Positions 7,775-52,973 of a stretch of 64,000 bases of DNA are shown here, piece after piece. The stretch is from a virus (Duplodnaviria > Caudoviricetes). The notes under the pieces were generated by a model, which worked only from the letters and a program-made list of their open reading frames with translations, had not been told where the DNA came from and searched no databases. The stretch lies in the IMG/VR virus record IMGVR_UViG_3300047491_000255, positions 32,001 through 96,000 of that record, one strand, 5' to 3'. The position numbers and the translations under genes are program-made. Numbering within the stretch: position 1 is the first letter of the stretch; each line of letters starts with the position of its first letter.

Positions 7775-7791
7775 TGTTGCCTCCTACCAAC

Positions 7792-8430: not shown

Positions 8431-8454
8431 ATTTCCCTTTCTCCCAATCGTAAT

Positions 8455-9243: not shown

Positions 9244-9998
9244 TATGCACCACCCGATCCTGGAAGCGGTATCCTCACACTACGACTCGGTCTCGATCTT
9301 CCATTTTGTCCCACTGCTCCGCTATGACTCTTTGGCTGTTGAGCTCTCAAGGCATCGCTTTCCTTTGCGATCACAATCTTCAACAACAGGAACTCCTTGT
9401 AAGGCATCTTTGGCAGCGAATCCCTATTGATTCCAAACTTCTCAGAGAAGTTACCCAGAGTGCAGAAACGACTTATTGCCTCACAAGCGTCCGTTACTCC
9501 ATGTCCTGACTTAGAAAATAATATCGCACACTGTCTTGAAATCTTCTCTTCTTCTTCGTTAGACACTTCCATGGATTCCTCAAAACCACTTACAAAAGCC
9601 TCAAGAAGCGGTGCTGGAACACTGGATACACGAGAGTAACTATCCGATGTCATCCACCCTGATTGATCCCGCTCTATCGGAATGTCCAAGCTCCACGACA
9701 AGAGATTCTTTTTGACAATCAACCTCTTGAACTCATTAATATCAGACACTTGAGTTGTGATCTTCTTCCCACTTCCTAATTGCTCTCCTACTTCTACCTC
9801 GTATAAAGTCGCCTGATCGATGGCATAATTGTCGCCAAACGTCATTGTTGCAAAAATAGCAGTATGCTCTTCGTCTCCGTCCTTGTCCGGCAAACAGAAT
9901 CCAAAACGGCGTGAAGTCTTAACCCGAACCGTAACACGTTCAGGATCAAACAACTCCGCACATTTCTGGCGAGCAGCATTTTCAGCCGTTGAATTCAT
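9243..9998 (-). CDS. Tail assembly chaperone-like protein
   Basis: Shares RL.V...L.SW and GW/VMT.E/D motifs with 9982..10446; located among tail genes. Confidence 0.45.
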   Translation of the reverse strand: MNSTAENAARQKCAELFDPERVTVRVKTSRRFGFCLPDKDGDEEHTAIFATMTFGDNYAIDQATLYEVEVGEQLGSGKKITTQVSDINEFKRLIVKKNLLSWSLDIPIERDQSGWMTSDSYSRVSSVPAPLLEAFVSGFEESMEVSNEEEEKISRQCAILFSKSGHGVTDACEAISRFCTLGNFSEKFGINRDSLPKMPYKEFLLLKIVIAKESDALRAQQPKSHSGAVGQNGRSRPSRSVRIPLPGSGGA

Positions 9999-15815: not shown

Positions 15816-16279
15816 TGATTAGTCCTTTCTAACAATACATCCCAGACAGGAGATAGTGCAACACGATACGTTAATAATTTTACTTGTATCTCAATTGGTT
15901 GTTCTGACACTAACCCCATCGCCGTAGACCAATCAGAAGGCACTGGTCCAATATTAAGACTTGCCCATAAAGCAGAGAATTTGGAAATCATATCGGCATA
16001 TGGAATAAGCGGATCGGCCTCCACCATGGGCGCGGCAGGAACCGGGCGCGGCACGATGAGCGCGTCCGTGATCGGGTCAACGGTCGGCTGGTCAACGTCG
16101 CCCTCGATGAGGTACTCGTACCATCCCTCGGCCTGCCGCTCCGCCACCGGTTGCCTCGCCATGAATGCGGAGAAGTTCCCGCGCACCAACCCACCATACT
16201 CGCATTGATTCTCCGGTATGCTGGCCGAGTCCGTGATTGTCCCGTCTGCGTTCAGTCTGTACATTATTGAGTCCTCCAT
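15812..16279 (-). CDS. Fibre-associated/chaperone-like hypothetical protein
   Basis: 155 aa directly after fibre-like genes; ERQAEGWY motif. Confidence 0.55.
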   Translation of the reverse strand: MEDSIMYRLNADGTITDSASIPENQCEYGGLVRGNFSAFMARQPVAERQAEGWYEYLIEGDVDQPTVDPITDALIVPRPVPAAPMVEADPLIPYADMISKFSALWASLNIGPVPSDWSTAMGLVSEQPIEIQVKLLTYRVALSPVWDVLLERTNQ

Positions 16280-17326
16280 TTACTTCCAGTTCGCACTCAT
16301 CGTGGCGTATCCCGGCACGTTCGTTGATGAGGCAAACGTATTGATATCATTCGTTGGCGTCAGCACAGTATGGATCACATTCGTGCCCCAAAAAACCTGA
16401 CCGCCCCACAGTGGCATGTTTCTCCATGCACTGTCCAACGATCCAACGATGTTTCCGCCAGTCATTGAGATGTTCGTGGGAATCTGGAAATCTCCTGACG
16501 TTATTTTTGCCATTCCGTTGCAGGCGTAGTAGTACGCACCCACCGCTAGCGGTCCGGTCATATTGATGGCGCTCAAAAATCCGTCAGGCAGTGGGCCGGT
16601 CACGTTGGACATATTGTTGCAGGCGTTGTTAAACATGTTCGCCGCTGTCGGCCCGGTTAGCCTCGACGTGTCCATAAATCCGGCGGGCAGTGGGCCTGTC
16701 ACGTTTACCATGCCGTAGCAGGTGTAAGCTAACATGCCTGACCCTGGTGGCCCGGTTAGTGCCGAAGTATCCATGAATCCGTCAGGCAGTGGCCCGACCA
16801 AGCCAGACATGTTGATGAAGGATGCTAAAAACATACCTGCCGTCGGCGTTCCGGTAATTTTCCGAAACGGATTTGTCCGCATAGCAGTAACCCGCGGGTT
16901 GCTGGAAAAAATCGCTCTGTACGCATTCACCGCCGTAGCCGCGTAGTCGAGAGTCCCCGAAAACTCGCATGTGTAGGTCGGACTCGTGAGCGAGGTGTGG
17001 AACATGTTTTGATATGCACCGCTTGCATTTCTCCAGTCGCCACGGAACTTGATGTAACGCCCGCGCATCGTAATCGTGTTGCTCGTGTACGCCGTCCACA
17101 CGCCATTGCCCGCGTCGTATAGAGCCTGCGACGGTGTGGCCGGTCCCGCGTATGCCTCGCCGACGCCCAGCGAGAGCGTCGTTGGCGGAGTACCGGAAAC
17201 AAAGGTGATTGTGAAATGGGTGTCGCCACCCAGCTTCCCAAGCGGGTCAATCCTGCTCGGGATCCCCGCCCAGACCGCCGCCGCCGCCAGCGACATCGCG
17301 CAAAGTGTCAGTGTGAGTGTTCTCAT
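16280..17326 (-). CDS. Repeat-containing adhesin-like protein with signal-peptide-like N-terminus
   Basis: Start re-set to MRTLTLTLCAMSLAAAAVWA; three to four repeats of M.NVTGPLP.GF.DTS.LTGP (LRR-like solenoid). Confidence 0.7.
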   Translation of the reverse strand: MRTLTLTLCAMSLAAAAVWAGIPSRIDPLGKLGGDTHFTITFVSGTPPTTLSLGVGEAYAGPATPSQALYDAGNGVWTAYTSNTITMRGRYIKFRGDWRNASGAYQNMFHTSLTSPTYTCEFSGTLDYAATAVNAYRAIFSSNPRVTAMRTNPFRKITGTPTAGMFLASFINMSGLVGPLPDGFMDTSALTGPPGSGMLAYTCYGMVNVTGPLPAGFMDTSRLTGPTAANMFNNACNNMSNVTGPLPDGFLSAINMTGPLAVGAYYYACNGMAKITSGDFQIPTNISMTGGNIVGSLDSAWRNMPLWGGQVFWGTNVIHTVLTPTNDINTFASSTNVPGYATMSANWK

Positions 17327-17327
17327 G

Positions 17328-19733
17328 TTAGAACGAGTCCCATTGATTGCAGATGATGTTCGTCTTGCCCAAGCTGCAGATGTATGCCTGCCAATTCGCC
17401 CGCAGCAGTTGGTTAGAGCGCGTCGTCGAGACCGTCGGCGTGGACAAGTAACGCAACGTCGCATTCGTCGCCGGGTACGCGAAACTCACGTTCGTATGAG
17501 CGACCGTAATCATGGTTGACCAATCCGCTACCTGCGTGCCGATGTTGAGCCCGGACAGGTCGAAGGCCAGCACGCTGGTCAAATTGGTCACGGTCAGCCG
17601 ATAGATTCTGTTGGTCGGCACAACCGCAATCGTGTTCGTGATCCCCGCCGCCGTCGCCTGCGTGATCGTCGGCGTGTACACGCGCTCGGTCGTCGGCATG
17701 GATTCCGCCGCGCTCGCAAGCCATGCCGCAAATATCGGATCGCTCTCCCCGCTACCGCTCGCCCCGCCGCCCGCCGTCCCCAACGGCTGCCCGCGCCGGT
17801 CATAAATCCAGTACGTCCGGCCGGCCGCATCACTCCGCACCACGATGCGGGCAATGCGGATTGTCATCCCTTGCATGTAAACCGGTACGCCTGTGTTATC
17901 GTAACTGCTGGCGTCCGCGATACAGTTGGCCAGCCGAGTCGAAGCAGGACCAGCCGTGTAACTCGCGCTCGAAAGATTGAGCATCAGGCGCGTCGATTTC
18001 GGCGTGATTCCGCTCTCCACAAAGGCAAACACATTGATCGCGTGACAATCCCCGACCGACCCGAACATCGCCGCGCCGCTCGGCAGTGCCGTCAGAGCGT
18101 TCAGATTCGTGATTGCCCGGAACCCCGACGCCGAGTTGAGCACCCACATCATTGTCCGATTCGTGTTGGCTGGAATCGTGTGGCTGTGCATTTGCCAACC
18201 CACGCCATCGGTCGTCGTGAGGTAAGCGTCCGTCACGCTGGAGTTGGTCGTCGAGACAGAAGCCTGGACGCCGCTCTCCCATATCGCCGGAAGCCGTCGC
18301 ACCCGCTCCCCGATCCACGACACGCGCCCCAGCCCGCGCCGGTTCTCCACATTCTCCGTCCAGCTCCTAATCGCGTAGCCATTGCCAGCCACGATGCTGT
18401 TGGTGTCCATCAGGAAAATCTCGAACATCATTGCGCGCGCATCCGCCGCCGTGCCGCTGGTCAAGTACGGATAGCTCGTGTAATTCGTAATCGTCCCGTT
18501 CGGCAAGGCGCACACATAGTTGAGCGCAGGAGTGTTCGTAGTCCCCGCCGTCAGCCGCACCACCACGCTGGTGCCGTACTGCACAATTGATTGACCGAAC
18601 CAGTATTCAATCTGGCCGGCTGGCGACGGCGTAACGGTCGCATACGGGCCTGTTGCATCAACCGCCAGCGACAAGACCGGATCGCGCACAGACAGCCCGT
18701 TGACCAAACCGAGGAAGTTGTTGGTGGACACCTTGCCCGCCAGCGCGTCGGCCAGCCCGGTCACGCCAGCAATAGGCACGTTGGACACTCCTGCGCCTCC
18801 CCCGATAAATTGGTTGGCGTAGACAGGCAACCGCACAACCGGTCTGCCGTTCCACGTCGCACCCCATCCAGTGGCGGTCGGGTTGGTGACGTAGTTGGTA
18901 ATGCTGGGATTAGCTAAATCGAAAACATTAAGTGCTTCTGTTGGTGCGTTCCCTGAGAAGTACATTGATCCCATGTCCTGGCACTGATAGAACGCATACG
19001 TCCCAACCGAAGTGACATTAGGCATAGGGTCAAATCTTACATCCCCGCAATAGCCAAACGCATAGCCTCCAATGGTCGTGACGTTAGGGAATTTTGCATC
19101 CGCCAGCTTTATGCAGCTTTGAAATGCTTGGTCTCCAATTGTCGTAACATTGGGGAGCGCAATCCACAATAACTCAGAACACCAAGTAAATGCTCTGAAT
19201 GAGATTGACCTGATATTCCCACCACCAGTTACACGCGTGATTACAGCGTTGAGTTCAAATATATTCCCGAACCCAGTCACCGGCAACCCATCCAACATAT
19301 CAGGAATCACCACCTCATTCGGACCGGTATATCCTGTCAGCGTCACTTCCGTATCTGTCTTGGTCCACGTCCAGTTGGTTGCGCTTGATGGATTCTGCCA
19401 TGCGGTCGCAACCTTGCTCGTCTCTGCCGCCGAAACGTGCAGCGTCCCCGCGCCTTCTATGCCAGACAGCGAGCCGTGCGGGATTCCGTTCGTCGCGGCG
19501 TTAATCGCAGAGGTTATCCAGCTAGGGATTGGATTGGTAGCCTCAATCACATAATTTGTCGAGGCAAGACCATTGGTAATTGATTGAGTTACCTCAAAAT
19601 GATTAGAGACGGTTCCAATCAACACTTTTCGAGCCAATACGGTTCCAAAACTGTTCGTCACATCAGCGGCCAATACAGGCCACACAAAAGCCAATACTGA
19701 GGTTATGACCAATGCTTTAAATGAGAATCTCAT
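17328..19733 (-). CDS. Fibre/adhesin-like protein with BspA-type leucine-rich repeats
   Basis: Start MRFSFKALVITSVLAFVWPVLAA (ATGA overlap with upstream gene); repeats LPNVTTIGDQAF, FPNVTTIGGYAF, MPNVTSVGTYAF. Confidence 0.8.
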   Translation of the reverse strand: MRFSFKALVITSVLAFVWPVLAADVTNSFGTVLARKVLIGTVSNHFEVTQSITNGLASTNYVIEATNPIPSWITSAINAATNGIPHGSLSGIEGAGTLHVSAAETSKVATAWQNPSSATNWTWTKTDTEVTLTGYTGPNEVVIPDMLDGLPVTGFGNIFELNAVITRVTGGGNIRSISFRAFTWCSELLWIALPNVTTIGDQAFQSCIKLADAKFPNVTTIGGYAFGYCGDVRFDPMPNVTSVGTYAFYQCQDMGSMYFSGNAPTEALNVFDLANPSITNYVTNPTATGWGATWNGRPVVRLPVYANQFIGGGAGVSNVPIAGVTGLADALAGKVSTNNFLGLVNGLSVRDPVLSLAVDATGPYATVTPSPAGQIEYWFGQSIVQYGTSVVVRLTAGTTNTPALNYVCALPNGTITNYTSYPYLTSGTAADARAMMFEIFLMDTNSIVAGNGYAIRSWTENVENRRGLGRVSWIGERVRRLPAIWESGVQASVSTTNSSVTDAYLTTTDGVGWQMHSHTIPANTNRTMMWVLNSASGFRAITNLNALTALPSGAAMFGSVGDCHAINVFAFVESGITPKSTRLMLNLSSASYTAGPASTRLANCIADASSYDNTGVPVYMQGMTIRIARIVVRSDAAGRTYWIYDRRGQPLGTAGGGASGSGESDPIFAAWLASAAESMPTTERVYTPTITQATAAGITNTIAVVPTNRIYRLTVTNLTSVLAFDLSGLNIGTQVADWSTMITVAHTNVSFAYPATNATLRYLSTPTVSTTRSNQLLRANWQAYICSLGKTNIICNQWDSF

Positions 19734-20020
19734 AGCCTTCCTCTCATCCTTCGAGCCGACTTGATCCCAAGCACACCGTCTGCAATCTTCTCCACTTGCA
19801 CGTCCTGTATCTTCCCTCTTATCCTGCGAAATACATCTAGACGATCTTCTGATCCACAACGCACGACTACATCATAGCCTCCTCCAAGAGGATGATGTAT
19901 CCCATCAGATACGATAAAACCATCACGCATCACCGTGGCAACCTCACGGCGAATCTCTTGAATCAAAGCAGCCGACATCATCAGATTGCCGATCTCCTCT
20001 ACCTCTCTTCCAAAATCCAT
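19730..20020 (-). CDS. Hypothetical protein
   Basis: 96-aa ORF coupled to next gene. Confidence 0.65.
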   Translation of the reverse strand: MDFGREVEEIGNLMMSAALIQEIRREVATVMRDGFIVSDGIHHPLGGGYDVVVRCGSEDRLDVFRRIRGKIQDVQVEKIADGVLGIKSARRMRGRL

Positions 20021-26130: not shown

Positions 26131-26216
26131 AATCATTCCTCCCTTTCTCTGAACAATCTTTTGACCGTGCGATCCTACACCTATATACAAAATATCAAAG
26201 AATTATTACTATAAAG

Positions 26217-26259
26217 AAAAAAGGGAGTCAATACCGTTTCCAGTATCAACTCCCTTTTT
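26217..26259. terminator. Intrinsic terminator after Ro60 gene (possibly bidirectional)
   Basis: aagggag...ctccctt inverted repeat flanked by A and T runs. Confidence 0.75.
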
Positions 26260-26275: not shown

Positions 26276-28030
26276 CTACTTCACGGTCCACTTCTCACGA
26301 ACCTGCTCCACTGTCGGCAGAGCAACCGTTCCTCCAATGCCCTCGGCTTGAAGCATCATAGAGAAAATCTTCTCACTGAAGCCTCCAACTTGATTGACAT
26401 GATCCCCGGCATCAACCGGAGCATCGCCGTACCCGTTAAGGTGAACGAGGTGGAGCCAAGTCTCAGCCGCAGCCTTACTTGACTTCCTGTACTTCGCCCA
26501 TGCATCTGCAAACGGCTGACCACCACCATTTTGACAATCGACCCACATCTGGCAGTCTGTCAGGATGATTACCCGTGCCGGAGTCTTACCCGAATTGATC
26601 AGGTGTTCAATGCACAAATGACCATTCGTTCCACCCCCATTACCAGACTTCTTCACCTTCTCACAGACGCCCATAACGGTATTCGTCTTGGCGAAGCGAA
26701 CCTCCTTCACATTCGTTCCGAAAGAGAATAAATATGCCCTCTCGCACGCCTTGGCTGCGATTCCCGCAAGCATGTTCGCTGCATCACGACAGTCACGAGC
26801 CGACCTCTCAGACAGAGTGTTACTCGTCATTGAACCAGAGTTATCAGCAAACAGCATGGTCTCACCCGGAATAACCGGGATATTGTAACATGACTCGTTT
26901 GCGGCTAGTTCAATAGCTGCCTCGACCTCCGATAAGTCTGCAAGATCGAATTCGCCAGACATCCCATCCAGTGCCGTCTTCGCAGACAGGAACCTGAACG
27001 GCAGTTGCTTCGACTTCACAACCTCGTCCTTGTTCGAGAGCTTGTCCGACACCTTCTGAATGACATCCTTGGAAACCTTCGCCTCTATGATGTTCCGCAG
27101 GTTACGAAGAAGAGCCATGTAACCGACCAGACCATTGTTGATCAGGAACGACCACACCGCATTCTTCTCCTTGCCGAATTGAGACAGCAAGACCTCCCAA
27201 TTGACCTGTGACTTCTTCGCCAGATCACGAGCCTCATCGTCAAACACCGTCTTCTTCGCCAACTCCTTACGAGCGGCGATGATCGGAGTCTTTGCAGGGT
27301 CATCGATCTTCCCGGTGATGAAATACTTGGCAACCTCACCATTCAAAGGCCAACCAGCCTTACGAGGAAGCCAGCAAAGCACGTCCTTCCAAGTCGGGAA
27401 GCCAGTGTCGTCATACTTCATCAGTCCACGCTCACCGAACTTACCCACCGCATCAGACAGACCGGTAGCCAAACTATTCGGCAGATTCTTCAGTCCGAAC
27501 AGAAACCGATGAACCAGCAAACAGGTCTTCACCTCGTCCGGACGCTTCACGATGTACGGAGCGTACTTCCGTACCAAAGGCTTCGTGCCATCAACATGAG
27601 AGGCCAACACCAATAAGACCTGCGGGGTCAAACGGATGTTCATCTCGTTACGAAGCCAGTTGGCGATAGCCAGAATGTCCTCGGGAGTCTTACCCCGTGC
27701 AACATCCAAAGCCGTAGAAATCACCTCACGGGCAGTTTCCGGGAGCTCATCACAGGTGATAAAGCCCTTCAGCTTGCCATCCACGATCTCCAGCCTCTCG
27801 GCCAGCTTATCGAACTTGCCACCAGTCCCACGCTTCGGCACACAGACCGCAGCATTATAGAACTTCGGCTCTGCGAAAAACGAACCACCAGTCATGGTGA
27901 TGAGCTTCAACGCCGGGTCAGAGACCTCAAACGCCACTCCACCTGCCCGGTTGACCGTAACAGTCTTTGCGTTGCTCGGCAGACGTGCCGCCGCAGCCCT
28001 CTTCCTCGCTACCGTCTTGAACGTGCTCAT
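26276..28030 (-). CDS. rsr: Ro60/Rsr-like TROVE + vWA domain RNA-binding protein
   Basis: NRAGGVAF start, LRNEMNIR, RPDE, YMALLRNLRNI, SKQLPFRFLSA TROVE motifs; DNSGSM MIDAS, GGTN and ILTDCQ in vWA; AAGGAGG RBS before ATG 28030. Confidence 0.93.
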   Translation of the reverse strand: MSTFKTVARKRAAAARLPSNAKTVTVNRAGGVAFEVSDPALKLITMTGGSFFAEPKFYNAAVCVPKRGTGGKFDKLAERLEIVDGKLKGFITCDELPETAREVISTALDVARGKTPEDILAIANWLRNEMNIRLTPQVLLVLASHVDGTKPLVRKYAPYIVKRPDEVKTCLLVHRFLFGLKNLPNSLATGLSDAVGKFGERGLMKYDDTGFPTWKDVLCWLPRKAGWPLNGEVAKYFITGKIDDPAKTPIIAARKELAKKTVFDDEARDLAKKSQVNWEVLLSQFGKEKNAVWSFLINNGLVGYMALLRNLRNIIEAKVSKDVIQKVSDKLSNKDEVVKSKQLPFRFLSAKTALDGMSGEFDLADLSEVEAAIELAANESCYNIPVIPGETMLFADNSGSMTSNTLSERSARDCRDAANMLAGIAAKACERAYLFSFGTNVKEVRFAKTNTVMGVCEKVKKSGNGGGTNGHLCIEHLINSGKTPARVIILTDCQMWVDCQNGGGQPFADAWAKYRKSSKAAAETWLHLVHLNGYGDAPVDAGDHVNQVGGFSEKIFSMMLQAEGIGGTVALPTVEQVREKWTVK

Positions 28031-28127
28031 TCTTCTATCATCCTCCTTGAAGGTGACATTTCTGCCACCAATTCTGTGCCTTACGGCACCCTTATTATCA
28101 ATGTTCCACATAGAACATTGCCATCCT

Positions 28128-28167
28128 AAAAAACAAAAAACCGAACATCCTTTTATAGATGTCCGGC
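28128..28167 (-). terminator. Intrinsic terminator downstream of tRNA
   Basis: GCCGGACATCT-loop-GGATGTTCGGT followed by TTTTTGTTTTTT on - strand. Confidence 0.8.
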
Positions 28168-28173
28168 TTTGAT

Positions 28174-28250
28174 TGGTAGCGGGGGCAGGATTTGAACCTG
28201 CGACCTTCAGGTTATGAACCTGCTAAGCTACCTGGCTGCTCCACCCCGCA
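28174..28250 (-). tRNA. tRNA-Met(CAT), initiator type
   Basis: TGCGGGGTGGAGCAGCCAGGTAGCT...TTCATAA...GGTTCAAATCC...CCCGCTACCA; 1:72 mismatch, encoded CCA, close to bacterial tRNA-fMet. Confidence 0.95.
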
Positions 28251-28257
28251 ATCAAAA

Positions 28258-28353
28258 GCCGACACCGATAGACGTTTGTGGTGTTTTTTCCCATTAAAAT
28301 CTCTGATCTTGGCCGCTAAAGCGTCCATCCAACCACAAACTGAAGGCATCAAC
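28258..28353 (-). ncRNA. Candidate Y-like RNA 1 (96-nt stem-loop)
   Basis: GTTGATGCC/GGTGTCGGC stem, TTCA/GTCTATC internal loop, GTTTGTGGT/ACCACAAAC stem, 3' U run; adjacent to Ro60 gene. Confidence 0.55.
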
Positions 28354-28357
28354 CAAA

Positions 28358-28453
28358 TCTTGTGAACTAATCAAACTCCAATAGTCGCATTGAGAACGCT
28401 GTCTTTTCTATAGAAGTATCTCAACACTGAAGGAGTTTGATTAGTTCACAAGA
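28358..28453 (-). ncRNA. Candidate Y-like RNA 2 (96-nt stem-loop)
   Basis: Perfect 22-bp inverted repeat, then TTCA/GACTATT internal loop and a second stem; same loop motif as RNA 1. Confidence 0.55.
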
Positions 28454-28455
28454 AT

Positions 28456-28485
28456 ACTATACTCTCTATCTCTGAAAGTTTGCAA
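28456..28485 (-). promoter_or_regulatory. Sigma70-like promoter for the hairpin-hairpin-tRNA unit
   Basis: TTGCAA-18 bp-TATAGT with upstream A tract. Confidence 0.65.
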
Positions 28486-28509
28486 CACTTTTTTCGACTT
28501 TCAGAAAAA

Positions 28510-28917
28510 TGGTGGAGGCGAGGAGAGTCGAACTCCTGTCCGCATGACACATACTACCTAACATACACATGCTTCTTCACGATTCTTATCGACCCCGGAC
28601 TTGGTCTATCCCGTCTTTCCGAGATGTCTTTGACTATCTACCCCGGTGCGTCTCATTCCCGGTATCATCTGTCTTTGCAGATCGTCACCCACATTCTTTA
28701 ATCCTCATCCAGATGTCGTGGAGACTCTGGCGTTTTGGAGGTGTGCTGTTAAGCAGCCGCCAGCATCGGAGCAGCCGAAGCCGGACCGAAGAACCAGCGA
28801 GTCACCGATCCAACAGTTTTGCCTGTTAGTGTTTTTCAGGAAAGATTTACGAGGCCAACCTGAGTCCTCGGCATGTCATCAGGTTTCAACACCACACGTC
28901 GAATACCTTACGCCCCC
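28510..28917 (-). ncRNA. ssrA: tmRNA
   Basis: 5' GGGGGCG pairs with 3' CGCCTCC-ACCA including G3:U; T arm GGAGTTCGACTCTCC; tag frame 28823-28749 ends LAAA-stop. Confidence 0.95.
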
Positions 28918-28921
28918 ATTA

Positions 28922-28931
28922 TCAAAGAACA
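28922..28931 (-). promoter_or_regulatory. boxA-like antitermination site before tmRNA
   Basis: TGTTCTTTGA 4 nt upstream of the tmRNA 5' end. Confidence 0.6.
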
Positions 28932-29223
28932 GTCGGGCTTTCATGCACCCGATGAGAGGTTTCGGACTAAGCCTACTTCCAGCAGATTGTTACGTCACTT
29001 CTTTATACTCGGTTGGCAACCAGAACAATCAACAGTTTCGCCGACGATTACCGAGTTGAACATCGCTCCTACCTTGCAGCAGCTAGGCAACCTGCATCAT
29101 CGAGCGGAATACCGATGTCCATCTATCCACTCGTCATCATTACATTACCAGATTCCTTCCAGAATACAATAAAAAATTTTTGGTGACCTCTCCCTCCCGT
29201 CAAGCAGTACCAGAAGCATCTGG

Positions 29224-29421
29224 CTACTTTAGCCCTAAGTTGGGTGTATCGTCGTCCGCAAAGAAAACGTCATGGCATTCCCACGCTGGAGGCCCGCAGT
29301 GGTAGCAGTTGGTTTTAGGATCGTCTGGGTCTTGGTTCCTGTCGGAACACGTCTTGCATGGGTCAGGAACACCCAGCAAGGCGTCCGATGCTACCTTCAT
29401 CTGCTCGATTCGCTCACTCAT
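29224..29421 (-). CDS. Cassette-borne Cys-rich hypothetical protein
   Basis: CKTC...CYHC; starts in attC 29371-29447. Confidence 0.6.
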   Translation of the reverse strand: MSERIEQMKVASDALLGVPDPCKTCSDRNQDPDDPKTNCYHCGPPAWECHDVFFADDDTPNLGLK

Positions 29422-29447
29422 TTCGGAGCCTCAACCTTGTGTTCTGT
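29371..29447 (+). mobile_element. attC-like site A (degenerate R'')
   Basis: ACCCAGC ... agcctcaac ... GTTCTGT; near copy of site D core. Confidence 0.6.
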
Positions 29448-29635
29448 ATGTACTCTTCGAGATACGCTTGGCAGATTCGACGCATTTCCATCCAAGACTG
29501 GCGGCCTGCCTTGCGACCGTACATGAGCCGTAGTTGCACGTTCGGAGGCGCGGCCAAGAACATGCGTTGATATGGGTGCAGAACCATTTGCTCCTCCGTA
29601 TGCCGGGGAGTGGCAGGCGTTTCAGGTGCGGTCAT
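29414..29635 (-). CDS. Cassette-borne hypothetical protein
   Basis: MTAPETPA...EYIQNTRLRLRNE; GAGGAG RBS inside attC B. Confidence 0.55.
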   Translation of the reverse strand: MTAPETPATPRHTEEQMVLHPYQRMFLAAPPNVQLRLMYGRKAGRQSWMEMRRICQAYLEEYIQNTRLRLRNE

Positions 29636-29680
29636 TTCGGTTCTCCTCGCTCCCCGGAAACGGAGAGCACGGTGTTCGGC
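29578..29680 (+). mobile_element. attC-like site B
   Basis: GCAGAAC; gctc(c)tccgt/acggagagc with extra C; ccggggag/ctccccgg; GTTCGGC. Confidence 0.8.
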
Positions 29681-29685
29681 GCTAC

Positions 29686-29871
29686 TCATTTCGGCATCAC
29701 TCGCAATTCGGACCACAGTGCGTCCCAATAGGTCGCCTTCGGTCCGCTGGTGAACTTGTTGAACGCCCTCGCCTCTAAATAGGGCTGCATGAGCAACAAC
29801 AGCGACGGCCCGACAACCAGCAGCGCAAGCACGATGAATACAAAACTTATCTTCACATCTTCCTTGTTCAT
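29686..29871 (-). CDS. Cassette-borne small membrane protein
   Basis: 61 aa with long hydrophobic helix; AAAGG RBS. Confidence 0.65.
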   Translation of the reverse strand: MNKEDVKISFVFIVLALLVVGPSLLLLMQPYLEARAFNKFTSGPKATYWDALWSELRVMPK

Positions 29872-29894
29872 CGTCGTTTCCTTTCAAAGCGGAG

Positions 29895-29952
29895 CGCCAA
29901 CAAGGCGCTCCAGTTGACTCACTTCGCTTGCAACTGAGTTTTGTCGTTCGGC
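29895..29952 (+). mobile_element. attC-like site C
   Basis: CGCCAAC; gctc(c)agttg/caactgagt with extra C; GTTCGGC; 58 bp. Confidence 0.85.
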
Positions 29953-30146
29953 GTCACGAGTACTTGCGTGACCTTGCCACGTCCTTCCGCCTCGGCACGC
30001 TTGTAGTGGTCTGGCGAGCACATGCGGACGACCAACTCAGACGGGTACAGGTGGCGATATTCGCTTTTCTCGGCGTCCCACCACGCCCACAGAACCGCCG
30101 AACCAGGCGTTTGAGGGCTACCTTCATTCTTCGCTTCGCTCGTCAT
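29919..30146 (-). CDS. Cassette-borne hypothetical protein
   Basis: 75 aa; starts in attC D, stops in attC C. Confidence 0.65.
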   Translation of the reverse strand: MTSEAKNEGSPQTPGSAVLWAWWDAEKSEYRHLYPSELVVRMCSPDHYKRAEAEGRGKVTQVLVTPNDKTQLQAK

Positions 30147-30173
30147 TTCGGAGCCTCAACTCTCTCGTAGGGC
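30097..30173 (+). mobile_element. attC-like site D (R' GTA variant)
   Basis: GCCGAAC; gtttgagggct/agcctcaac; GTAGGGC. Confidence 0.75.
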
Positions 30174-30430
30174 GAAACCACGACGCGCTCAGTACGCTCG
30201 ATGATCCGATGCCGATACGTTTCGCCATGTCCGCGATTTGTTTCACATTCATGTCTCAGTTTGTGAATAGCTTCTTGCAGCGCCTTGCACTCTGGGATGT
30301 CCGGGTCGGCATACCATCCATCGCGGCAGTCGGGTCTTGCCTCTTGGACGACGAATCGCCGAACCAAGCGGTCCAGCGGATGAGCGCCAACGGCGTCATT
30401 CGCAAATGGTGGCTTTGTGGTGGCGCTCAT
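30143..30430 (-). CDS. Cassette-borne hypothetical protein
   Basis: 95 aa; ATGA overlaps at both ends, each inside an attC. Confidence 0.65.
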   Translation of the reverse strand: MSATTKPPFANDAVGAHPLDRLVRRFVVQEARPDCRDGWYADPDIPECKALQEAIHKLRHECETNRGHGETYRHRIIERTERVVVSPYERVEAPK

Positions 30431-30451
30431 CGCTGACCTTTCTCGTTCGGC
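30358..30451 (+). mobile_element. attC-like site E
   Basis: GCCGAAC; ggtc(c)agcg(g)atgagcgcca/tggcgctcatcgctgacc with two extrahelical bases; GTTCGGC. Confidence 0.88.
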
Positions 30452-30651
30452 AACTCAATGCACGCGCCTATGGCGTTCCCGCCTGGTGTCGGAAACGTGT
30501 CGCCGCAAAACCACTTCCACCCGTCTCGGATTCGCGTCCAGTGCCCACCGTTGAAGGCGTGCGCTTTGGTGCCAATCGGGTAGTCGTTCCAGTCACGATC
30601 CTTCCACAGTCTGGCCGAACCAGACGGTTGAAAAAATTCACTACCGCTCAA
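30427..30651 (-). CDS. Cassette-borne Trp-rich hypothetical protein
   Basis: 74 aa; AGGAGGT RBS; carries GCCGAAC (30614-30620) complementary to the cassette start. Confidence 0.65.
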   Translation of the reverse strand: MSGSEFFQPSGSARLWKDRDWNDYPIGTKAHAFNGGHWTRIRDGWKWFCGDTFPTPGGNAIGACIELPNEKGQR

Positions 30652-30672
30652 TGCTTACCTCCTTGTTCTCAA

Positions 30673-30891
30673 TCATAGCCACAGCCGCACCGCCTTTCCG
30701 TGTCTCGGATGCTGTTCATTGACTCGCACAGTTTCAACGGTTGTCTCGAATACGTTTGGCACGCCGCAGGTCATATTCGAGTCTTGATCTGGCAATGTGC
30801 TACCAGTACAGGTCACTTCGATGTTCCCGTGTTCTTTGCGGACGCGCCGCAGTTCTTCGATCAGTTGGTCAATCTTCATGCTGTCCTCCAT
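30673..30891 (-). CDS. Hypothetical protein
   Basis: MKIDQLIEELRRVRKEHGNIEV, a common small phage protein pattern. Confidence 0.65.
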   Translation of the reverse strand: MEDSMKIDQLIEELRRVRKEHGNIEVTCTGSTLPDQDSNMTCGVPNVFETTVETVRVNEQHPRHGKAVRLWL

Positions 30892-30909
30892 TTGTTGCGA
30901 ACAACCGCG

Positions 30910-31242
30910 TCACTCTTCCACCTGGTACATCGTCTTCCCGTTGCTTTGCATGCGCATTTCAACGACCCCCGCGCCCATTACCGCGATGTACTCGCGGCCG
31001 GTGTCCACGTCGCGCAGCACAAGGATGTCGCGGCTATGCCCTTCAGCGTCGTTGATGACCTGAGCAGACGTGACGTTGAACCTTCCGCTCTGCTCGGCCT
31101 TCAGCTTCTCGTTGCTCACTGGCGTCGGGTCGGAACACCCGGCCAACAAGGCGCTGGTAACTACGGCGATAGTACACCCGGTAAACAAGGCGCTGGTAAC
31201 TACGGCGATAGTACACCCAGCAAACGTGATTCTCCTGTTCAT
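30910..31242 (-). CDS. Putative lipoprotein in cassette array
   Basis: Signal with LLAGC lipobox; 13-aa duplication in the signal region. Confidence 0.65.
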   Translation of the reverse strand: MNRRITFAGCTIAVVTSALFTGCTIAVVTSALLAGCSDPTPVSNEKLKAEQSGRFNVTSAQVINDAEGHSRDILVLRDVDTGREYIAVMGAGVVEMRMQSNGKTMYQVEE

Positions 31243-31290
31243 GCGTTCCTTTCTGGCGTCTGCCGCCGAGTTTCAGCTTTGTCGTTACAG
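31141..31290 (+). mobile_element. attC-like site with internal 39-bp duplication
   Basis: GGCCAAC; gctggtaactacggcg/cgccgagtttcagc; GTTACAG. Confidence 0.65.
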
Positions 31291-31374
31291 ATCGAGCCTT
31301 CCGTCCGCTTGTTAGCGGGGTCATAGTGGAAAACCTAGCGTACAGACCTTTCGGCCACTCCCGCAGGTAAATCA

Positions 31375-31925
31375 AATGACTGTCTCTCCAGCCTGTCACC
31401 GATCTCCTTTATCTCGACTGGCTACCTTACAGTGCTACGGTCGCCGTCACCAGTCAAAGTCCGATTTCCACAGACGCCCTTTCAGGTCGAACACGACTGA
31501 CGGAATACCTTTTCAGTCTTTGGGAGCTTTTCATTCCCGTTTCCGTCATCGGGTTCGGGACAATCGATTTCCCCTCTAGGGAAATCGACTACCTCCCCAC
31601 CATCCAATCATCGGGATTCTCTGCTATATTCGTTTTAGGTTCGTATTGATAAAGACCAGCATATCCTTCCCGATTTCGTGAGCCATTAGCGACCTCTTCT
31701 ACCTAACTAATCTCAGGAAGGGATCATCTCCCCCCTGATTTAGCTTCGACCTGCTCACAGGCGGGCTTGGAACCGCCTTGCCGCATTACTGGCCCGACAT
31801 TGCCTCTTCCGGGTGTTACTCCGGACGTACAGTCGGCCAGTCCTCTGCGATTACTGACAACCAATAAGGTGTCAGTCACCTCAAGATTAAAAACTGGCAG
31901 GACGGATTCTCGCCGTCGCACTTGT
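31375..31925 (-). ncRNA. Unclassified structured RNA region (one or more RNAs)
   Basis: No credible ORF; series of stems, e.g. TAATCTTGAGG/CCTGAGATTA, ATCGGGA/TCCCGAT, TCGATTTCCC/GGGAAATCGA, TGACGGAA/TTCCGTCA. Confidence 0.55.
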
Positions 31926-32054
31926 CTCCCTCATCCTCATCCGCCTCCAAAAAACAGCCTTTTATTTGAGAAGCCATTAACTTAGAGGTCTTACTGATGT
32001 TTTTTGAGATCATCGACTCTTTTTTTATTTTGCCCAAGAGGACGAACCTCCATG

Positions 32055-32346
32055 TTTACTATTGCACCCGACAAGAGGCATCGTTAGCCTTGCCCAAATT
32101 TCCCCCCGCTTCACCACCCTTGTTCCCTACGACTTGCGCCCGGATTGCTCCGTGTCACAGTCTCGGAGGGGGTGTGGCAGCCATTCAGGTTCCTTCGAGA
32201 CCCTGTAGCCTTTTACTACCCTTGCCTGTGTGTGCCGCCTGTTTTCAGACGGCTGACCGTGTTTCGGAATTACCCTACTTTGCGGATTTTTAGCGCATTG
32301 GGACTTCATGCGCAGACACGTTAAATGCCGTGTCACTACCAGTAAA
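32055..32346 (-). ncRNA. Unclassified ~290-nt structured RNA
   Basis: Starts just after boxA; ends pair (TTTACTG/TAGTAAA); hairpins GACACG/CGTGTC, GCGCAT/ATGCGC, GCCGTCTG/CAGGCGGC. Confidence 0.6.
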
Positions 32347-32352
32347 AATCAG

Positions 32353-32365
32353 TTTTCAAAGAGCA
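32353..32365 (-). promoter_or_regulatory. boxA-like site
   Basis: TGCTCTTTGAAAA. Confidence 0.7.
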
Positions 32366-32458
32366 TCGAGCGTCTCGGGTCCAATTTCATAACCCGACTT
32401 GAGCCGCTTCTCAGTCCAATCGGTTTCCCGATCTTAGCTCCACGGCTGATACTCGAAA

Positions 32459-32796
32459 GGACTTTGTGATGGCGTGCTGTTACGCCAAAGAATCCACCAT
32501 GCGGTTGAGTATGGCCTACGTCAAAATCGCGGTCCGCACGAACATTTTTGACGCCGGGAGCCGCAACCTCCTTCGCCACACAACAGGGCAGTACACTCTA
32601 CCGCACCCCCGATGGCTCCGGCATGATCTTTCGATCTTCCGTCTCTTCGAGATGCAAGACATCCGGTTCCGTCCGGCCTACCCAATCCCCGTTGCGCCAC
32701 TCCGAATAGCCGCTATTCCAACGGCACTCACGTAGTGATTCTCAGCGATGCACTCATTAAGGTGGCTGCCTCTAAGCCCACCACCATCACTAGTCC
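32459..32796 (-). ncRNA. 338-nt RNA mimicking 23S rRNA H42-H44 (uL11-binding GTPase-associated centre)
   Basis: GGTGGGCTTAGAGGCAGCCACC (H43-like) near 5' end; GCGTAACAGC (H44-like) near 3' end; closed by GTGATGG/CCATCAC and GGACT/AGTCC. Confidence 0.8.
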
Positions 32797-32799
32797 AAA

Positions 32800-32812
32800 T
32801 TGTCAAAGAACA
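32800..32812 (-). promoter_or_regulatory. boxA-like site
   Basis: TGTTCTTTGACAA, 3 nt before the 338-nt RNA. Confidence 0.7.
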
Positions 32813-32813
32813 T

Positions 32814-33019
32814 GTGAAGCCACGATCCATACCGTCCCAGGTTCGGGCTGACCCTACTACTGACTGGAATTGAACCAGCTTTGTCGCCTCACACTCAGAT
32901 TCTCTATTGAGGATTCTGGATGGCCGCTAAACCCTTCTCCATCGCCTCACTCTCCTGTCTTGTTGACCGCTAAGCCAATGACTCGGTTTGCTATGGCAAC
33001 GCCAAAATCCTCAGTAGAA
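32814..33019 (-). ncRNA. Stem-loop RNA plus permuted tRNA-like domain
   Basis: TACTGAGGATTTTGG/CCAGAATCCTCAATA stem (about 32900-33019), then GTGAGGC/GCTTCAC stem enclosing T arm GCTGGTTCAATTCCAGT. Confidence 0.5.
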
Positions 33020-33037
33020 CATCCTCACATCCATACA

Positions 33038-33505
33038 TTACCGATTCTTTTTCAGAATACGGGAAAAAAATGTTTTTTTCTTTTGAGTCTCTTCGACGTT
33101 CTCGTCGATGGTGACGACATTGTCCGGTCCCCGTTCAGACTCCACAGTAGGCTCAATCTCTAGGTCTGCCGCCTTCACACCATCTTCGATCTTGTCTGGA
33201 GCTGTGCCCTTCGGCTTCGATCCTGCGATATTCAAAATCAGCTCTCCAAGCTTTGTATCGATCACACGACCCGGAACGATCTCCTCGCCATCCTGACGCC
33301 GCTTCTCCGTGTCTATCTTATGAGCTTCGATCTGATGCCTGTAAGACCAATTACGAACCCCTTCCTTCCATTCCCCATCAATCAGGACATCCAGACGATA
33401 CCTCTTATCAGGATTGTTTCTCTGAATGTTTCGCTTCTTCCGAATCGCATTGGCACGAGCTTGCTTTTTCTGCCACCTCTTACGCTCTACTCTTGTCTGA
33501 CCCAT
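33038..33505 (-). CDS. Hypothetical basic protein
   Basis: 155 aa, AGGAGG RBS, upstream TATAAT. Confidence 0.7.
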   Translation of the reverse strand: MGQTRVERKRWQKKQARANAIRKKRNIQRNNPDKRYRLDVLIDGEWKEGVRNWSYRHQIEAHKIDTEKRRQDGEEIVPGRVIDTKLGELILNIAGSKPKGTAPDKIEDGVKAADLEIEPTVESERGPDNVVTIDENVEETQKKKTFFSRILKKNR

Positions 33506-33996: not shown

Positions 33997-34989
33997 TCAA
34001 TTCATCATGCCACGTTCAAAACACTCATGAATATCAAGCTTGAACTTCGTATGCTTTCGATCTTCCAGCTCAATGTCTGTGTAATTGTCCTTAGCCTTTG
34101 GAGATTCTTTCCATCCATTCCCTCCACAAGTCTCTCCAACCTGTTTACCCGTTGTAAAGACGAGATCATTCCTGCCCGCTCCAACATGAAGCACACTGTC
34201 CTGATTGTACTTATTTCCGAGTTCTTCAAGCATTTTCCGGCGACTCTTGCTTTCATCACCATCCTTGTGATGAACCATCAAGGACTTTTGTGTTTTTGGC
34301 GTTAGCTCGGTATCGTCATGAAACACTAGGAACGTGCTCTCTGGACCACCATAATGACCTACAACCTCGGTGTATGGAAGACCAGCCCTCTCTAAATCAA
34401 TTCTAAGTTTTTCATGTCTCTTGTGGAAAAACTCATCATCAGGTGCCATACCTGCTTCCTTTGGAAAATTCTTGTTTCTGCCAGCAGAAATAAGCGTGAA
34501 ATGACCCTTTGTGAGAGTATCTACTAGCTTCGGCTTGCTTAACGGAATATACGCCTTGTATTGAATTCTCTTCTTTGGCTTAGGATCAGCCGTCTCATCC
34601 TTCTTCGTTGGCATCGTCACTTTAGACTTATTTTGTTGTGCGTCAGGAGATTTCCCCTCTGGAGGAGCCTTGCGATTCACCACTTTCAGTTTCGTGTCTT
34701 TCCTAACATCATGCTCTCTTTGATATTTATTAAGAGCGTCCTGTGTTGGGAAATCGATACCAACAAATACCCTAGCCACTCGATCAGCTAAAAAGCTCTC
34801 GACAATCCTAGATGAAATAGCCGCAGTTCTTGAAGCCTTAAAATCCTTAATCAAATCATCAACATACCAAGTATTAACCATATTGTGTGGATCAAGATGA
34901 TACTTCTCACGATTGTCCAATGCGTATTCCACAAAATCATCCACATTGAATCTATGATTCTTCGCAACAGTTTCTAATGTATTCCACAT
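33997..34989 (-). CDS. Multi-domain hypothetical protein (DUF3293-like C-terminal domain)
   Basis: FTLISAGRN...GHYGGPESTFLV...LGNKYNQDSVL; carries the DFPTQDA motif. Confidence 0.6.
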   Translation of the reverse strand: MWNTLETVAKNHRFNVDDFVEYALDNREKYHLDPHNMVNTWYVDDLIKDFKASRTAAISSRIVESFLADRVARVFVGIDFPTQDALNKYQREHDVRKDTKLKVVNRKAPPEGKSPDAQQNKSKVTMPTKKDETADPKPKKRIQYKAYIPLSKPKLVDTLTKGHFTLISAGRNKNFPKEAGMAPDDEFFHKRHEKLRIDLERAGLPYTEVVGHYGGPESTFLVFHDDTELTPKTQKSLMVHHKDGDESKSRRKMLEELGNKYNQDSVLHVGAGRNDLVFTTGKQVGETCGGNGWKESPKAKDNYTDIELEDRKHTKFKLDIHECFERGMMN

Positions 34990-52908: not shown

Positions 52909-52973
52909 ATCGAGCCCTCCACTTGTGTACATAATATAAAGAAAAAATCACAATAACTACCATCTGAATCGTC

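Follow-up and report, generated by a model that had tools for sequence, protein, structure and literature searches.

A 64,000-nucleotide stretch of a Caudoviricetes phage genome (hereafter the window) carries on its minus strand, at positions 26276-33060, an island in which the gene for a Ro60-like protein is found together with a transfer-messenger RNA (tmRNA), an initiator-type transfer RNA (tRNA) for methionine, two copies of a structured RNA module, further structured RNAs (R1-R5) and a twister ribozyme. The window corresponds to positions 32001-96000 of the 124.8 kb IMG/VR contig IMGVR_UViG_3300047491_000255, whose completeness is estimated by CheckV at about 50%, and the island is read from high to low coordinates. 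We propose, with a probability of roughly 60%, that it is a conserved cluster of non-coding RNA genes of a large freshwater phage, that it would be organized in three co-directional units ending at Ro60, and that it could function as an RNA-surveillance and translation kit expressed with antitermination in the style of ribosomal RNA (rRNA) operons.

The relatives that we compared with the window are seven IMG/VR loci found with the Ro60 protein and 48 metagenome loci found with a profile of the Ro60 clade. They are designated by L numbers, the duplicates being L004=L005, L006=L014, L007=L021, L008=L009=L034=L035, L046=L047, L052=L053 and L050=L063. A tmRNA lies on the Ro60 strand in five of the seven IMG/VR loci, in eight of the nine long metagenome loci and, at full length, in 5/19 of the short ones, while a tRNA-Met(CAT), usually just upstream of Ro60, is present in 5 of 7 loci and in 22 of 46 loci. 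A preliminary description of the island had noted that its elements are co-oriented, which holds for the whole of 26276-33060, and had proposed to look for synteny in related phages. In many uncultured relatives the four elements tmRNA, module, tRNA-Met and Ro60 are again grouped on a single strand; this linkage is conserved, not accidental.

The Ro60 locus and its RNA module

The end of the island that includes Ro60 holds the following features.

28510-28917 (minus): tmRNA with a G3-U70 acceptor stem, an encoded CCA and a tag ending in ...GKTVGSVTRWFFGPASAAPMLAAA* (Rfam RF00023)
28456-28485 (minus): predicted sigma-70-type promoter P3 (TTGCAA-18-TATAGT)
28358-28453 (minus): Y-like RNA 1, a 22-bp outer stem around the CUUCAG / AUACUUC / CGACUAUUGG module (fold and model)
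28257-28354 (minus): Y-like RNA 2, a second copy of this module, separated from the tRNA by 6 nt (module model)
28174-28250 (minus): initiator-type tRNA-Met (CAT) with its CCA encoded (Rfam and ARAGORN)
28137-28170 (minus): predicted intrinsic terminator-like hairpin of 14 pairs with a T tract, between the tRNA and Ro60
26276-28111 (minus): Ro60-like protein with a TROVE ring and a vWA domain carrying a DxSxS metal site (611-aa open reading frame, ORF; Pfam)

Ro60 proteins and Y RNAs have been described in animals, in a few bacteria and in actinophages. The phage protein matches the Pfam families TROVE with 78.8 bits (cut-off 23) and vWA_Ro60 with 31.9 bits (cut-off 27.7), and it shows the arrangement of the Ro60/Rsr family, that is TROVE followed by a Ro60-type vWA domain with DxSxS. 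The residues of this site (D423, S425 and S427) are invariant across six members of the clade, and a profile of the same six members matches the solved chains of human RO60 (4e-13), Xenopus laevis Ro (7.4e-12) and Deinococcus radiodurans Rsr (2.2e-7). The protein is less than 30% identical to the Ro-like proteins from cultured phages.

Comparison of the DNA upstream of the tRNA across loci revealed a common frame, the module, in which a stem a, one bulged base, the motif C-UUCAG, a stem b ending in GGG and the sequence (U/A)UACUUC are followed by a variable insert, stem b', CGAYUAUUGG and stem a'. The two modules of the window sit between the tmRNA and the tRNA and end 146 and 259 nt upstream of Ro60. 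The covariance model of the module finds them at 28370-28439 (58.9 bits, Y-like RNA 1) and at 28257-28352 (48.1 bits, Y-like RNA 2). The 124.8 kb contig has no other match, and both are close to Ro60 on its upstream side. The fold of the region that contains them (28130-28456) has a z of -6.7. Rfam matches to MIR403 and MIR2646 at 28344-28462 were set aside, being merely the long hairpin of Y-like RNA 1.

The structure of the module is established by covariation. In an alignment of 20 sequences (A4), 97.0% of the cells of 15 named pairs can pair, as compared with 69.0% in shuffled alignments and 39.5-47.3% in controls where the partner was slid by 1-3 columns. Double-sided changes occupy 83 cells for 26.8 expected, a value reached by none of the 500 shuffles. 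The single-stranded loops are invariant, and the insert varies from a few bases up to arrays of small GRAAGAC-loop hairpins.

The module is also linked to Ro60. At E<=0.1 and with seven duplicate loci left out, the covariance model gave 57 matches (20 of which are the seeds) in 31 of 49 sources, all of them on the Ro60 strand. Among the 55 matches outside the window, 49 lie within 1.5 kb upstream of Ro60, three at 1.5-2.5 kb, two farther upstream and one downstream, in a tally that counts L052 and L053 twice. In the window and in 12 loci only 3-12 nt separate the end of a match from the tRNA-Met, the two forming a conserved tandem.

Mini-hairpins with GRAAGAC loops, three to five in number, fill the inserts of the promoter-proximal Y-like RNAs of L003 (9636-9745), L004 (9003-9112), L006 (9626-9750), L013 (930-1010) and L059 (2340-2460). 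Similar hairpins occur in the tmRNA of the same phages, in its pseudoknot region (28590-28712 in the window; blastn E=1e-6), and may represent a shared protein-binding motif.

As defined in those parts of Chen et al. 2014 (PMC4201824) on which we rely, the bacterial Y RNA YrlA has a GNCGAAN0-1G motif near its 5' end and an internal tRNA-like domain with T and D arms, and is encoded no more than 4 kb from Ro60 on the same strand. The window modules share this location. In L059 the insert of the module is a domain composed of a T-arm, a stem and a D-arm, and it matches the Rfam YrlA model with 33.1 bits (E=3.9e-5 on 1 kb), the best YrlA score among the relatives, below the gathering score of 69. 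A YUAY tetranucleotide follows the second stem in 28/54 module matches, the form ATAC being found in 16/54, and ACGAAG, a near-variant of the YrlA 5' motif, occurs in three of the 54. On account of the tRNA-like insert of L059 and of its weak YrlA match, we read the module as a probable divergent Y RNA scaffold and not as a member of YrlA.

Bacterial initiator tRNAs have a CAT anticodon, no Watson-Crick pair at 1:72, an A11:U24 pair and G:C pairs closing the anticodon stem. By these features the tRNA-Met of the window appears to be of initiator type, with a U1-U72 mismatch, A11:U24 and, beside the anticodon loop, two G:C pairs plus A:U. Among 24 aligned tRNAs of the clade, 20 have a 1:72 mismatch; by our reading, U1:A72 is found in L003, L004 and L052 and U1:C72 in L017. 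A11:U24 and G:C pairs by the anticodon loop are present in most of them, and all three anticodon-stem G:C pairs only in L023 and L025. L004 also possesses, at 7270-7346 and about 100 nt upstream of its twister, an additional, odd gene resembling tRNA-Met(CAT), whose D-arm is unusual and which only ARAGORN predicted.

The tmRNA is a full-length member of RF00023, with 107.4 bits for a gathering score of 47. It is 81% identical to that of L003, and the mismatches are distributed 29/24/25 over the codon phases, an even spread like that of R1 and R2. We read its tag as ending in ...PMLAAA*; the tags given by ARAGORN for relatives end in ...PMLAAA (L003) and ...ALAAA (L007). ARAGORN proposed for the window a tag in another frame (AHLQNARVSTTSG), which we rejected as a misreading because the ...GKTVGSVTRWFFGPASAAPMLAAA frame agrees with the tags of the relatives. 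The Ro60 gene, the initiator tRNA and the tmRNA announced in the preliminary description are thus all present under those identities.

The tmRNA of L004 (8037-8860) has an unusual arrangement. The match ends in the T-arm at about 8424, and the 3' strand of the acceptor with its CCA is found only at about 8845-8860. The gap of about 420 nt contains an ORF of 95 aa on the opposite strand (8534-8821) and looks like an intervening sequence in the T-loop of the tmRNA; no intron family was found in it at gathering score.

Large RNAs, boxA-like motifs and a twister ribozyme

Further features of the island, and one gene outside it, are as follows.

33034-33060 (minus): putative promoter-like element P1 (GTATTCTG-N10-GGTAATGTA behind an A/T tract), heading the first RNA unit
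32813-33033 (minus): R1, in which a long hairpin bearing two D-loop-like hairpins (UUAGCGG loops) is followed by a four-way junction that includes a T-arm-like hairpin (loop UUCAAUU) (fold common to window and L003)
32800-32812 (minus): boxA-like motif 1 (TGTTCTTTGACAA), directly before R2 and identical in L003
32366-32799 (minus): R2, a conserved core with variable hairpins, of no known family (alignment of window, L003 and L004)
32353-32365 (minus): boxA-like motif 2 (TGCTCTTTGAAAA), directly before R3, with a boxA-like motif at the equivalent R2/R3 junction of L004
31889-32343 (minus): R3, about 455 nt, with a long-range closing helix (ACUGGUAG paired to CUGCCAGU) directly next to a U5 tract (alignment of window and L004)
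31761-31849 (minus): twister-P5 self-cleaving ribozyme, with a predicted cut at U31788/A31787 (Rfam RF02684)
31378-31787 (minus): R4b, downstream of the twister cut, with a weak terminator-like hairpin (31378-31393) at its end (aligned to L004 and L003)
29224-31242 (minus): eight small ORFs (61-110 aa) of higher G+C, which split the RNA island
29141-29167 (minus): putative promoter-like element P2, a second copy of the P1 motif
28932-29140 (minus): R5, the tmRNA leader, with a conserved hairpin (loop UAGAUGGNCAUCGGUAU) and a second hairpin (28933-28952) directly before boxA 3 (conservation)
28919-28931 (minus): boxA-like motif 3 (TGTTCTTTGATAA), one base before the 5' end of the tmRNA
26218-26259 (minus): predicted terminator-like hairpin past the Ro60 gene, which overlaps with a promoter-like site and with a TAATAATTCTTTGATATT motif
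59115-60593 (minus): CCA-adding enzyme that includes an HD domain, encoded 31 kb away from the island (Pfam and PHROG)

About 2 kb of the island is conserved DNA that evolves as non-coding. The stretch made of R1 and R2 (33036-32378) is 77% identical to that of L003, the closest relative; its mismatches are spread 45/53/52 over the three phases (p=0.68), and 11 of its 13 gap runs are not a multiple of three. The same comparison gives 91/56/212 for Ro60 (p=5e-25), as expected of coding DNA, with about 35% of the third codon positions different, and a coding-like 27/25/57 for the ORF upstream of the island. The preliminary description had spoken of unknown RNAs and had tied its reading to the conservation of the non-coding segments; these segments are indeed conserved, without codon periodicity and with gaps that break the frame.

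Paired regions of these RNAs are maintained through changes. The T-arm-like stem of R1 contains two compensatory changes between the window and L003, the single-sequence fold of R1 having a z of -2.05. For R2, 24 of the 106 predicted pairs stay paired through changes on both sides. The closing helix of R3 is kept in the window and in L004, and 21/72 predicted pairs are changed on both sides in these two sequences. A helix of R4b covaries from GUGAGC/GCUCAC to ACGAGC/GCUCGU, and the piece at 31384-31488 is also kept in L003 and L006. Upstream of the tmRNA, the segment 29060-29197 is conserved in L004 and L045, and a stem of R5 covaries (GAGUGGA/UCCGCUC versus GAACGGA/UCCGUUC).

R1-R5 and the two modules of the window match no Rfam family at permissive thresholds, and R1 none at E<=10. 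Motif scans of IMG/VR for R2, R3 and R4b returned the known relatives and one chance match, L071, in a protein gene of an unrelated AT-rich phage. The rRNA mimic of the preliminary description finds no support: the Rfam scans of the window gave no rRNA family and the model of large-subunit (LSU) rRNA finds nothing in the contig at E<=10. A segment of about 25 nt near the 3' end of R2 (32474-32500, minus strand), conserved in the window, L003 and L004, is somewhat reminiscent of the 5'-terminal region of 23S rRNA; the LSU model gives no match there.

The Rfam scan that the preliminary description had called for detected the tmRNA and the tRNA, and also a twister-P5 ribozyme, which was absent from its list, as was the block of eight small ORFs. 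The ribozyme belongs to its family by a match over model positions 1-58 of 58 with 48.6 bits (gathering score 37.6), and the match in L004/L005 reaches 38.0 bits. Its cut was placed from the conserved UAAUGCG in the model alignment and from the cleavage site of twister ribozymes. From the window to L004, the combination of GAGGA and UUCC changes to GAAGA and UUCU, a G-to-A change accompanied by a C-to-U change in the P4 loop, which fits the T2 pseudoknot of twister ribozymes. Weak HDV-like matches (gathering score 44) are found in two other relatives, directly past the tRNA-Met in L018 (1319-1389, 31.1 bits) and past the 3' end of the tmRNA in L054 (95-164, 36.1 bits), and suggest that ribozyme-assisted maturation of RNA is a habit of the clade. 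HDV-like theta ribozymes occur next to phage tRNAs, as reported in the part of PMC10879173 considered here.

The preliminary description placed three elements behind boxA motifs, and three exact copies of TGYTCTTTGAHAA do stand on one strand, within 3.9 kb, before R2, R3 and the tmRNA. A scan with one mismatch allowed gives these three matches for a mean of 0.84 in shuffled sequence, and three were reached in 6 of 100 shuffles. Together, the window and the non-duplicate loci (446 kb) contain 59 copies of [GA]YTCTTTGANA on the Ro60 strand as against three on the opposite one, for a chance expectation that we calculate at about 1.7 per strand. By our count, 44 of the 59 are of the G-type. These stand directly before the tmRNA in the window, L003, L004, L013, L018, L019, L028 and L045, and before Y-like modules for example in L007, L016, L019, L023, L025, L028-L030, L046 and L054. 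In the window the three motifs are inside the predicted transcripts, and two of them follow similar hairpins, UCGGGU...AUGAAA...CCCGA, at 32375-32397 (within R2, before boxA 2) and 28933-28952.

The motif agrees with GYTCTTTAANA at 10 of 11 positions, this consensus being the gamma-proteobacterial one (PMC5725501, in the part used here). It shares UCUUUGA with the Bacillus subtilis rrn consensus AUGAUCUUUGAAA and UGYUCUUU with the Escherichia coli consensus, both as given in the section of PMC13753749 that we draw on. The same section states that the B. subtilis rrn AUGAUCUUUGAAA stands after a small 5' hairpin and binds NusB. It is known that boxA precedes rRNA, suhB and CRISPR arrays (portions of PMC13753749 and PMC5725501), and in the island too the match to the boxA consensus lies ahead of long untranslated RNA.

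The motif of P1 and P2 is present in only two copies in the 124.8 kb contig, both on the minus strand and each heading an RNA unit, and P1-like elements occupy the same place in L003 and L004. P3 is conserved in L003, L004, L013 and L045, equally far from where the RNA begins. Just past the terminator-like hairpin of Ro60, a conserved TAATAATTCTTTGATATT element overlaps a promoter-like site and its -10 box in the window (26186-26203) and in L017, L020, L030, L036 and L038. This element is akin to the boxA-like motif, from which it differs by an initial A.

Two sets of protein genes have to be mentioned here. The CCA-adding enzyme that the preliminary description had placed elsewhere in the window was recovered at 59115-60593 by both Pfam and PHROG. 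Its PolyA_pol head, RNA-binding, HD and tRNA_NucTran2_2 domains score 64.5, 56.3, 40.7 and 26.8 bits, and it matches the PHROG of tRNA nucleotidyltransferase at 8.6e-57. These are the domains of a class II nucleotidyltransferase, and such matches do not separate CCA-adding from poly(A)-adding specificity. The eight small ORFs give only weak matches to PHROGs of unknown function and match no Pfam family, and their block is not found at the equivalent place in L003.

Proposed working of the island and competing explanations

The three units can be pictured as follows. Unit 1 would start at P1 and comprise R1, a boxA, R2, a second boxA, R3, the twister-P5 and R4b; unit 2, from P2, would consist of the leader with its hairpin, a boxA and the tmRNA; unit 3, from the sigma-70-type promoter, would contain the two Ro60-linked RNAs and then the initiator tRNA-Met, with Ro60 behind the terminator. 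The boxA-like motifs could recruit host factors of the NusB/S10 type and so spare the polymerase from Rho on long untranslated transcripts, as in rRNA operons. The twister would cleave the transcript of unit 1, R4b gaining a 5'-OH and R3 keeping a 2',3'-cyclic phosphate, and RNase P would free the 5' ends of the tmRNA and of the tRNA. The two modules are envisaged as divergent Y RNAs that bind the phage Ro60 and steer it to RNA substrates or partners. The tmRNA, with host SmpB, would rescue stalled ribosomes and add a degradation tag ending in ...LAAA, and the extra initiator tRNA and the CCA enzyme could sustain initiation and the 3' ends of tRNAs during infection. Such a kit may mainly boost translation, or it may counter defences that cut tRNAs or stall ribosomes.

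Several observations weigh against this picture. The preliminary description had spoken of Y-like RNAs, and what holds of this is the presence of two structured modules near Ro60; they lack hallmarks of YrlA. Its 5' motif GNCGAAN0-1G is found in none of 54 module matches, from 30 nt upstream to 14 nt inside; the two window modules have no T and D arms, a T-loop-like sequence occurring in 6/54 matches; and the Rfam YrlA model (RF02553) has no match in the window at E<=5 and none in R1 at E<=10. Because motif, arms and Rfam match are all absent from the window, we infer the binding of Ro60 only from the linkage and from one relative, L059. R1-R4 were found in two distinct relatives only (L003, and L004 = L005); other relatives with extended flanks on the upstream side lack them, except that L006 has the final 100 nt of R4b. 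The twister of L003 is degenerate and has no Rfam match at E<=10, and in the window phage the eight-ORF block splits the island. In relatives the boxA-like motif often lies 6-11 nt after a -10 box, so it could also be a promoter-proximal or processing element. Its A-type variant (TAATAATTCTTTGATATT) overlaps the -10 boxes that precede protein genes and is perhaps another element. The likeness to boxA was judged from the consensus sequences of B. subtilis, E. coli and the gamma-proteobacteria. The whole reading, expression included, is moreover drawn from sequence.

The coordinated RNA-based kit of the preliminary description is itself only partly upheld. The conserved linkage on one strand and the 59:3 strand bias of the boxA-like motif fit a coordinated unit for RNA surveillance and translation, which might, as proposed there, also act against host defences that attack tRNA or ribosomes. 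No match to the SmpB, RtcB or RNA ligase families was found within the 124.8 kb contig, that is within about half of the genome, so the tmRNA would need the SmpB of the host.

One could argue that the island is an ordinary accessory translation cluster, in which R1-R5 are mere folding leaders or spacers and the boxA-like motif is a promoter-proximal or RNase processing signal instead of a Nus site. The grouping of a TROVE gene, tRNAs and a tmRNA within 5 kb in Bacillus phage G, the Ro-like gene located in the tRNA array of Arthrobacter phage Atuin, the poor spread of R1-R4 and the frequent position of the motif just past -10 boxes would all agree with this. However, R1 and R2 are conserved to nearly the same degree as the tmRNA (77% versus 81% identity to L003) while the third positions of Ro60 diverge as given above, R2 and R3 possess conserved cores with covarying hairpins, R3 keeps its closing helix, and the motifs of the window are deep inside the predicted transcripts, two after hairpins and none at a promoter. 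We therefore consider this explanation unlikely, if far from negligible. That the unknown RNAs are decayed mobile elements, remnants of introns or unrecognised small protein genes seems to us very improbable: the split tmRNA of L004, whose gap of about 420 nt harbours a 95-aa ORF on the opposite strand, and the small-ORF block inserted in the window would go in this direction, but the Rfam scans gave no intron or mobile-element family, and the lack of codon periodicity, the frame-breaking indels and the covarying paired regions do not fit it.

Another explanation is that the island produces anti-defence decoys. The modules, the tRNA-like R1 and the extra initiator tRNA would mimic or replace host RNAs hit by nucleases of abortive infection, for example anticodon nucleases or toxins that cleave tRNA-fMet, and Ro60 with the CCA enzyme would clear or mend the fragments. 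An initiator tRNA, a tmRNA, Ro60 and an HD-domain CCA enzyme are indeed all present, the module loops are both invariant and single-stranded, and a twister predicted to give a cyclic-phosphate end belongs to the same island. On the other hand, nothing ties the island to any defence system, RtcB and RNA ligase are among the families missing from the contig, and the loop motifs of the module match no tRNA loop that we could name. We regard this explanation as improbable.

Returning to the conserved RNA gene cluster that we favour, it can be extended in a way that we put forward tentatively, as possible rather than expected. The clade might have built an rRNA-operon-like expression for an RNA toolkit of its own, at the hub of which would be a new class of Y RNA with a Ro60-linked stem and exchangeable cargo, be it a tRNA-like domain, a series of hairpins with GRAAGAC loops (as in the tmRNA of these phages) or a true initiator tRNA fused on the downstream side. 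Ro60 would then be steered to the machinery that handles tRNA and tmRNA at stalled ribosomes, and R2, R3 and R4b would be new large functional RNAs, of about 400-450 nt each, obtained through boxA antitermination and the twister cut.

Genomic setting, novelty and comparison with known systems

Nearly every long ORF of the contig is on the minus strand, and the other proteins of the window include tail-tube-like proteins, a RecQ-type helicase, methyltransferases and glycosyltransferases. Just upstream of the island, at 33997-34989 (minus), is encoded a 330-aa protein with a C-terminal domain of the S-adenosylmethionine lyase family (31.8 bits), which may have an anti-restriction function. A patch of high G+C at 16000-19900 (0.56-0.61 versus about 0.45 around) holds the gene for an 843-aa BspA-type leucine-rich-repeat protein, possibly acquired, and a 775-aa protein with a ferritin-like domain and DUF7417 is encoded at 50605-52932 (minus). 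Outside the window, at its far end (113405-124456), the contig has another 13 tRNA genes, again without exception minus-strand (Leu x5, Ser x3, Tyr, Cys, Asn, Val and Phe).

The DNA of the phage is present in three DNA sequencing runs from freshwater or lake, possibly its source, and no RNA run is among the runs listed as containing it. INPHARED contains no close relative, blastn having matched the tRNA only. Candidatus Brocadiia was considered as host from a single 2.9 kb contig, binned in a metagenome-assembled genome, with a match to the Ro60 profile; this contig agrees with locus L050 in length and in match, and the evidence is too weak for a host assignment.

Phage Ro60 with YrlA, phage tmRNAs, Ro-like genes in tRNA arrays, boxA before rRNA, suhB and CRISPR arrays, and twister ribozymes are already known. 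We found no description of their combination in the literature, the relatives not having been compared with the 22 phages of Chen et al. 2014. By this literature search, the module and its spread, its tandem with the initiator tRNA, the order tmRNA-module-tRNA-fMet-Ro60 and the accompanying large RNAs are new, and so are boxA-led RNA-only units in phages. The analysis thus brings a new Ro60-linked RNA module, backed by covariation, which occurs at dozens of loci from uncultured phages, without exception on the strand of Ro60, and is associated with a tmRNA and an initiator tRNA. With it come concrete RNAs and motifs for testing the role of Ro60 in phage infection. It would also extend boxA-type leaders to RNA-only operons of phages, place a twister ribozyme in such an operon and add three or four sizeable structured RNAs without a family. 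The cultured phage Atuin, which has related module-like RNAs, offers an experimental handle.

A parallel can be drawn with the clusters of jumbo phages. In Bacillus phage G (L066), 4884-9838 holds on one strand, within 5 kb, a TROVE protein, several tRNAs including tRNA-Met and an annotated tmRNA. In Atuin (L065) the annotated Ro-like gene lies inside the tRNA array and has on both sides weak matches to the module model (25.2 and 22.3 bits); clear T- and D-arm sequences are found there within a comparable frame. Unannotated module-like or YrlA-like RNAs are seen in this phage at 4186-4255, 6488-6560 and 6790-6925, each directly before or among tRNAs. The island resembles these clusters, and the tmRNAs of huge phages (PMC7162821, in the part consulted), by its Ro-like gene among tRNAs with a tmRNA within a few kb. 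It differs from them in that the records of phage G and Atuin annotate no Y RNA, boxA or ribozyme, and in that the order tmRNA, Y-like modules, tRNA-fMet, Ro60, together with 2 kb of extra structured RNA, is not described for phage G, Atuin or, in that part of the source, the huge-phage clusters.

As with the theta ribozymes (PMC10879173, within the passages used), a small self-cleaving ribozyme is found in a cluster of phage RNA genes, where it would most simply be a processing element. Unlike them, it is of the twister type and placed between two large unknown RNAs instead of by a tRNA.

The resemblance to the Ro60/Rsr systems with YrlA or YrlB, as these are presented in the sections of PMC4201824 relied on here, lies in the TROVE plus vWA protein, in genes for structured RNAs on its strand and no more than 4 kb away, in paired 5' and 3' ends that form a stem around a variable effector domain, in the YUAY-type tetranucleotide of 28/54 module matches and in the T/D-arm insert of L059. 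Unlike YrlA, the module has an invariant internal loop, C-UUCAG opposite CGAYUAUUGG, in place of GNCGAAN0-1G, and most copies lack a tRNA-like domain, the last one being fused directly upstream of a real initiator tRNA.

Finally, the island can be compared with the leader of an rRNA operon, to the extent that PMC13753749 and PMC5725501 describe it in the portions considered. As in that leader, a motif of 12-13 nt, in the phage UGYUCUUUGANAA, stands ahead of long untranslated RNAs, twice just past a small hairpin, and it recurs in front of one RNA after another, much like boxA in front of 16S and 23S. Unlike in the rRNA leader, the motif is here encoded by the phage and precedes a tmRNA, Y-like RNAs and unknown RNAs rather than rRNA, as a putative Nus site.

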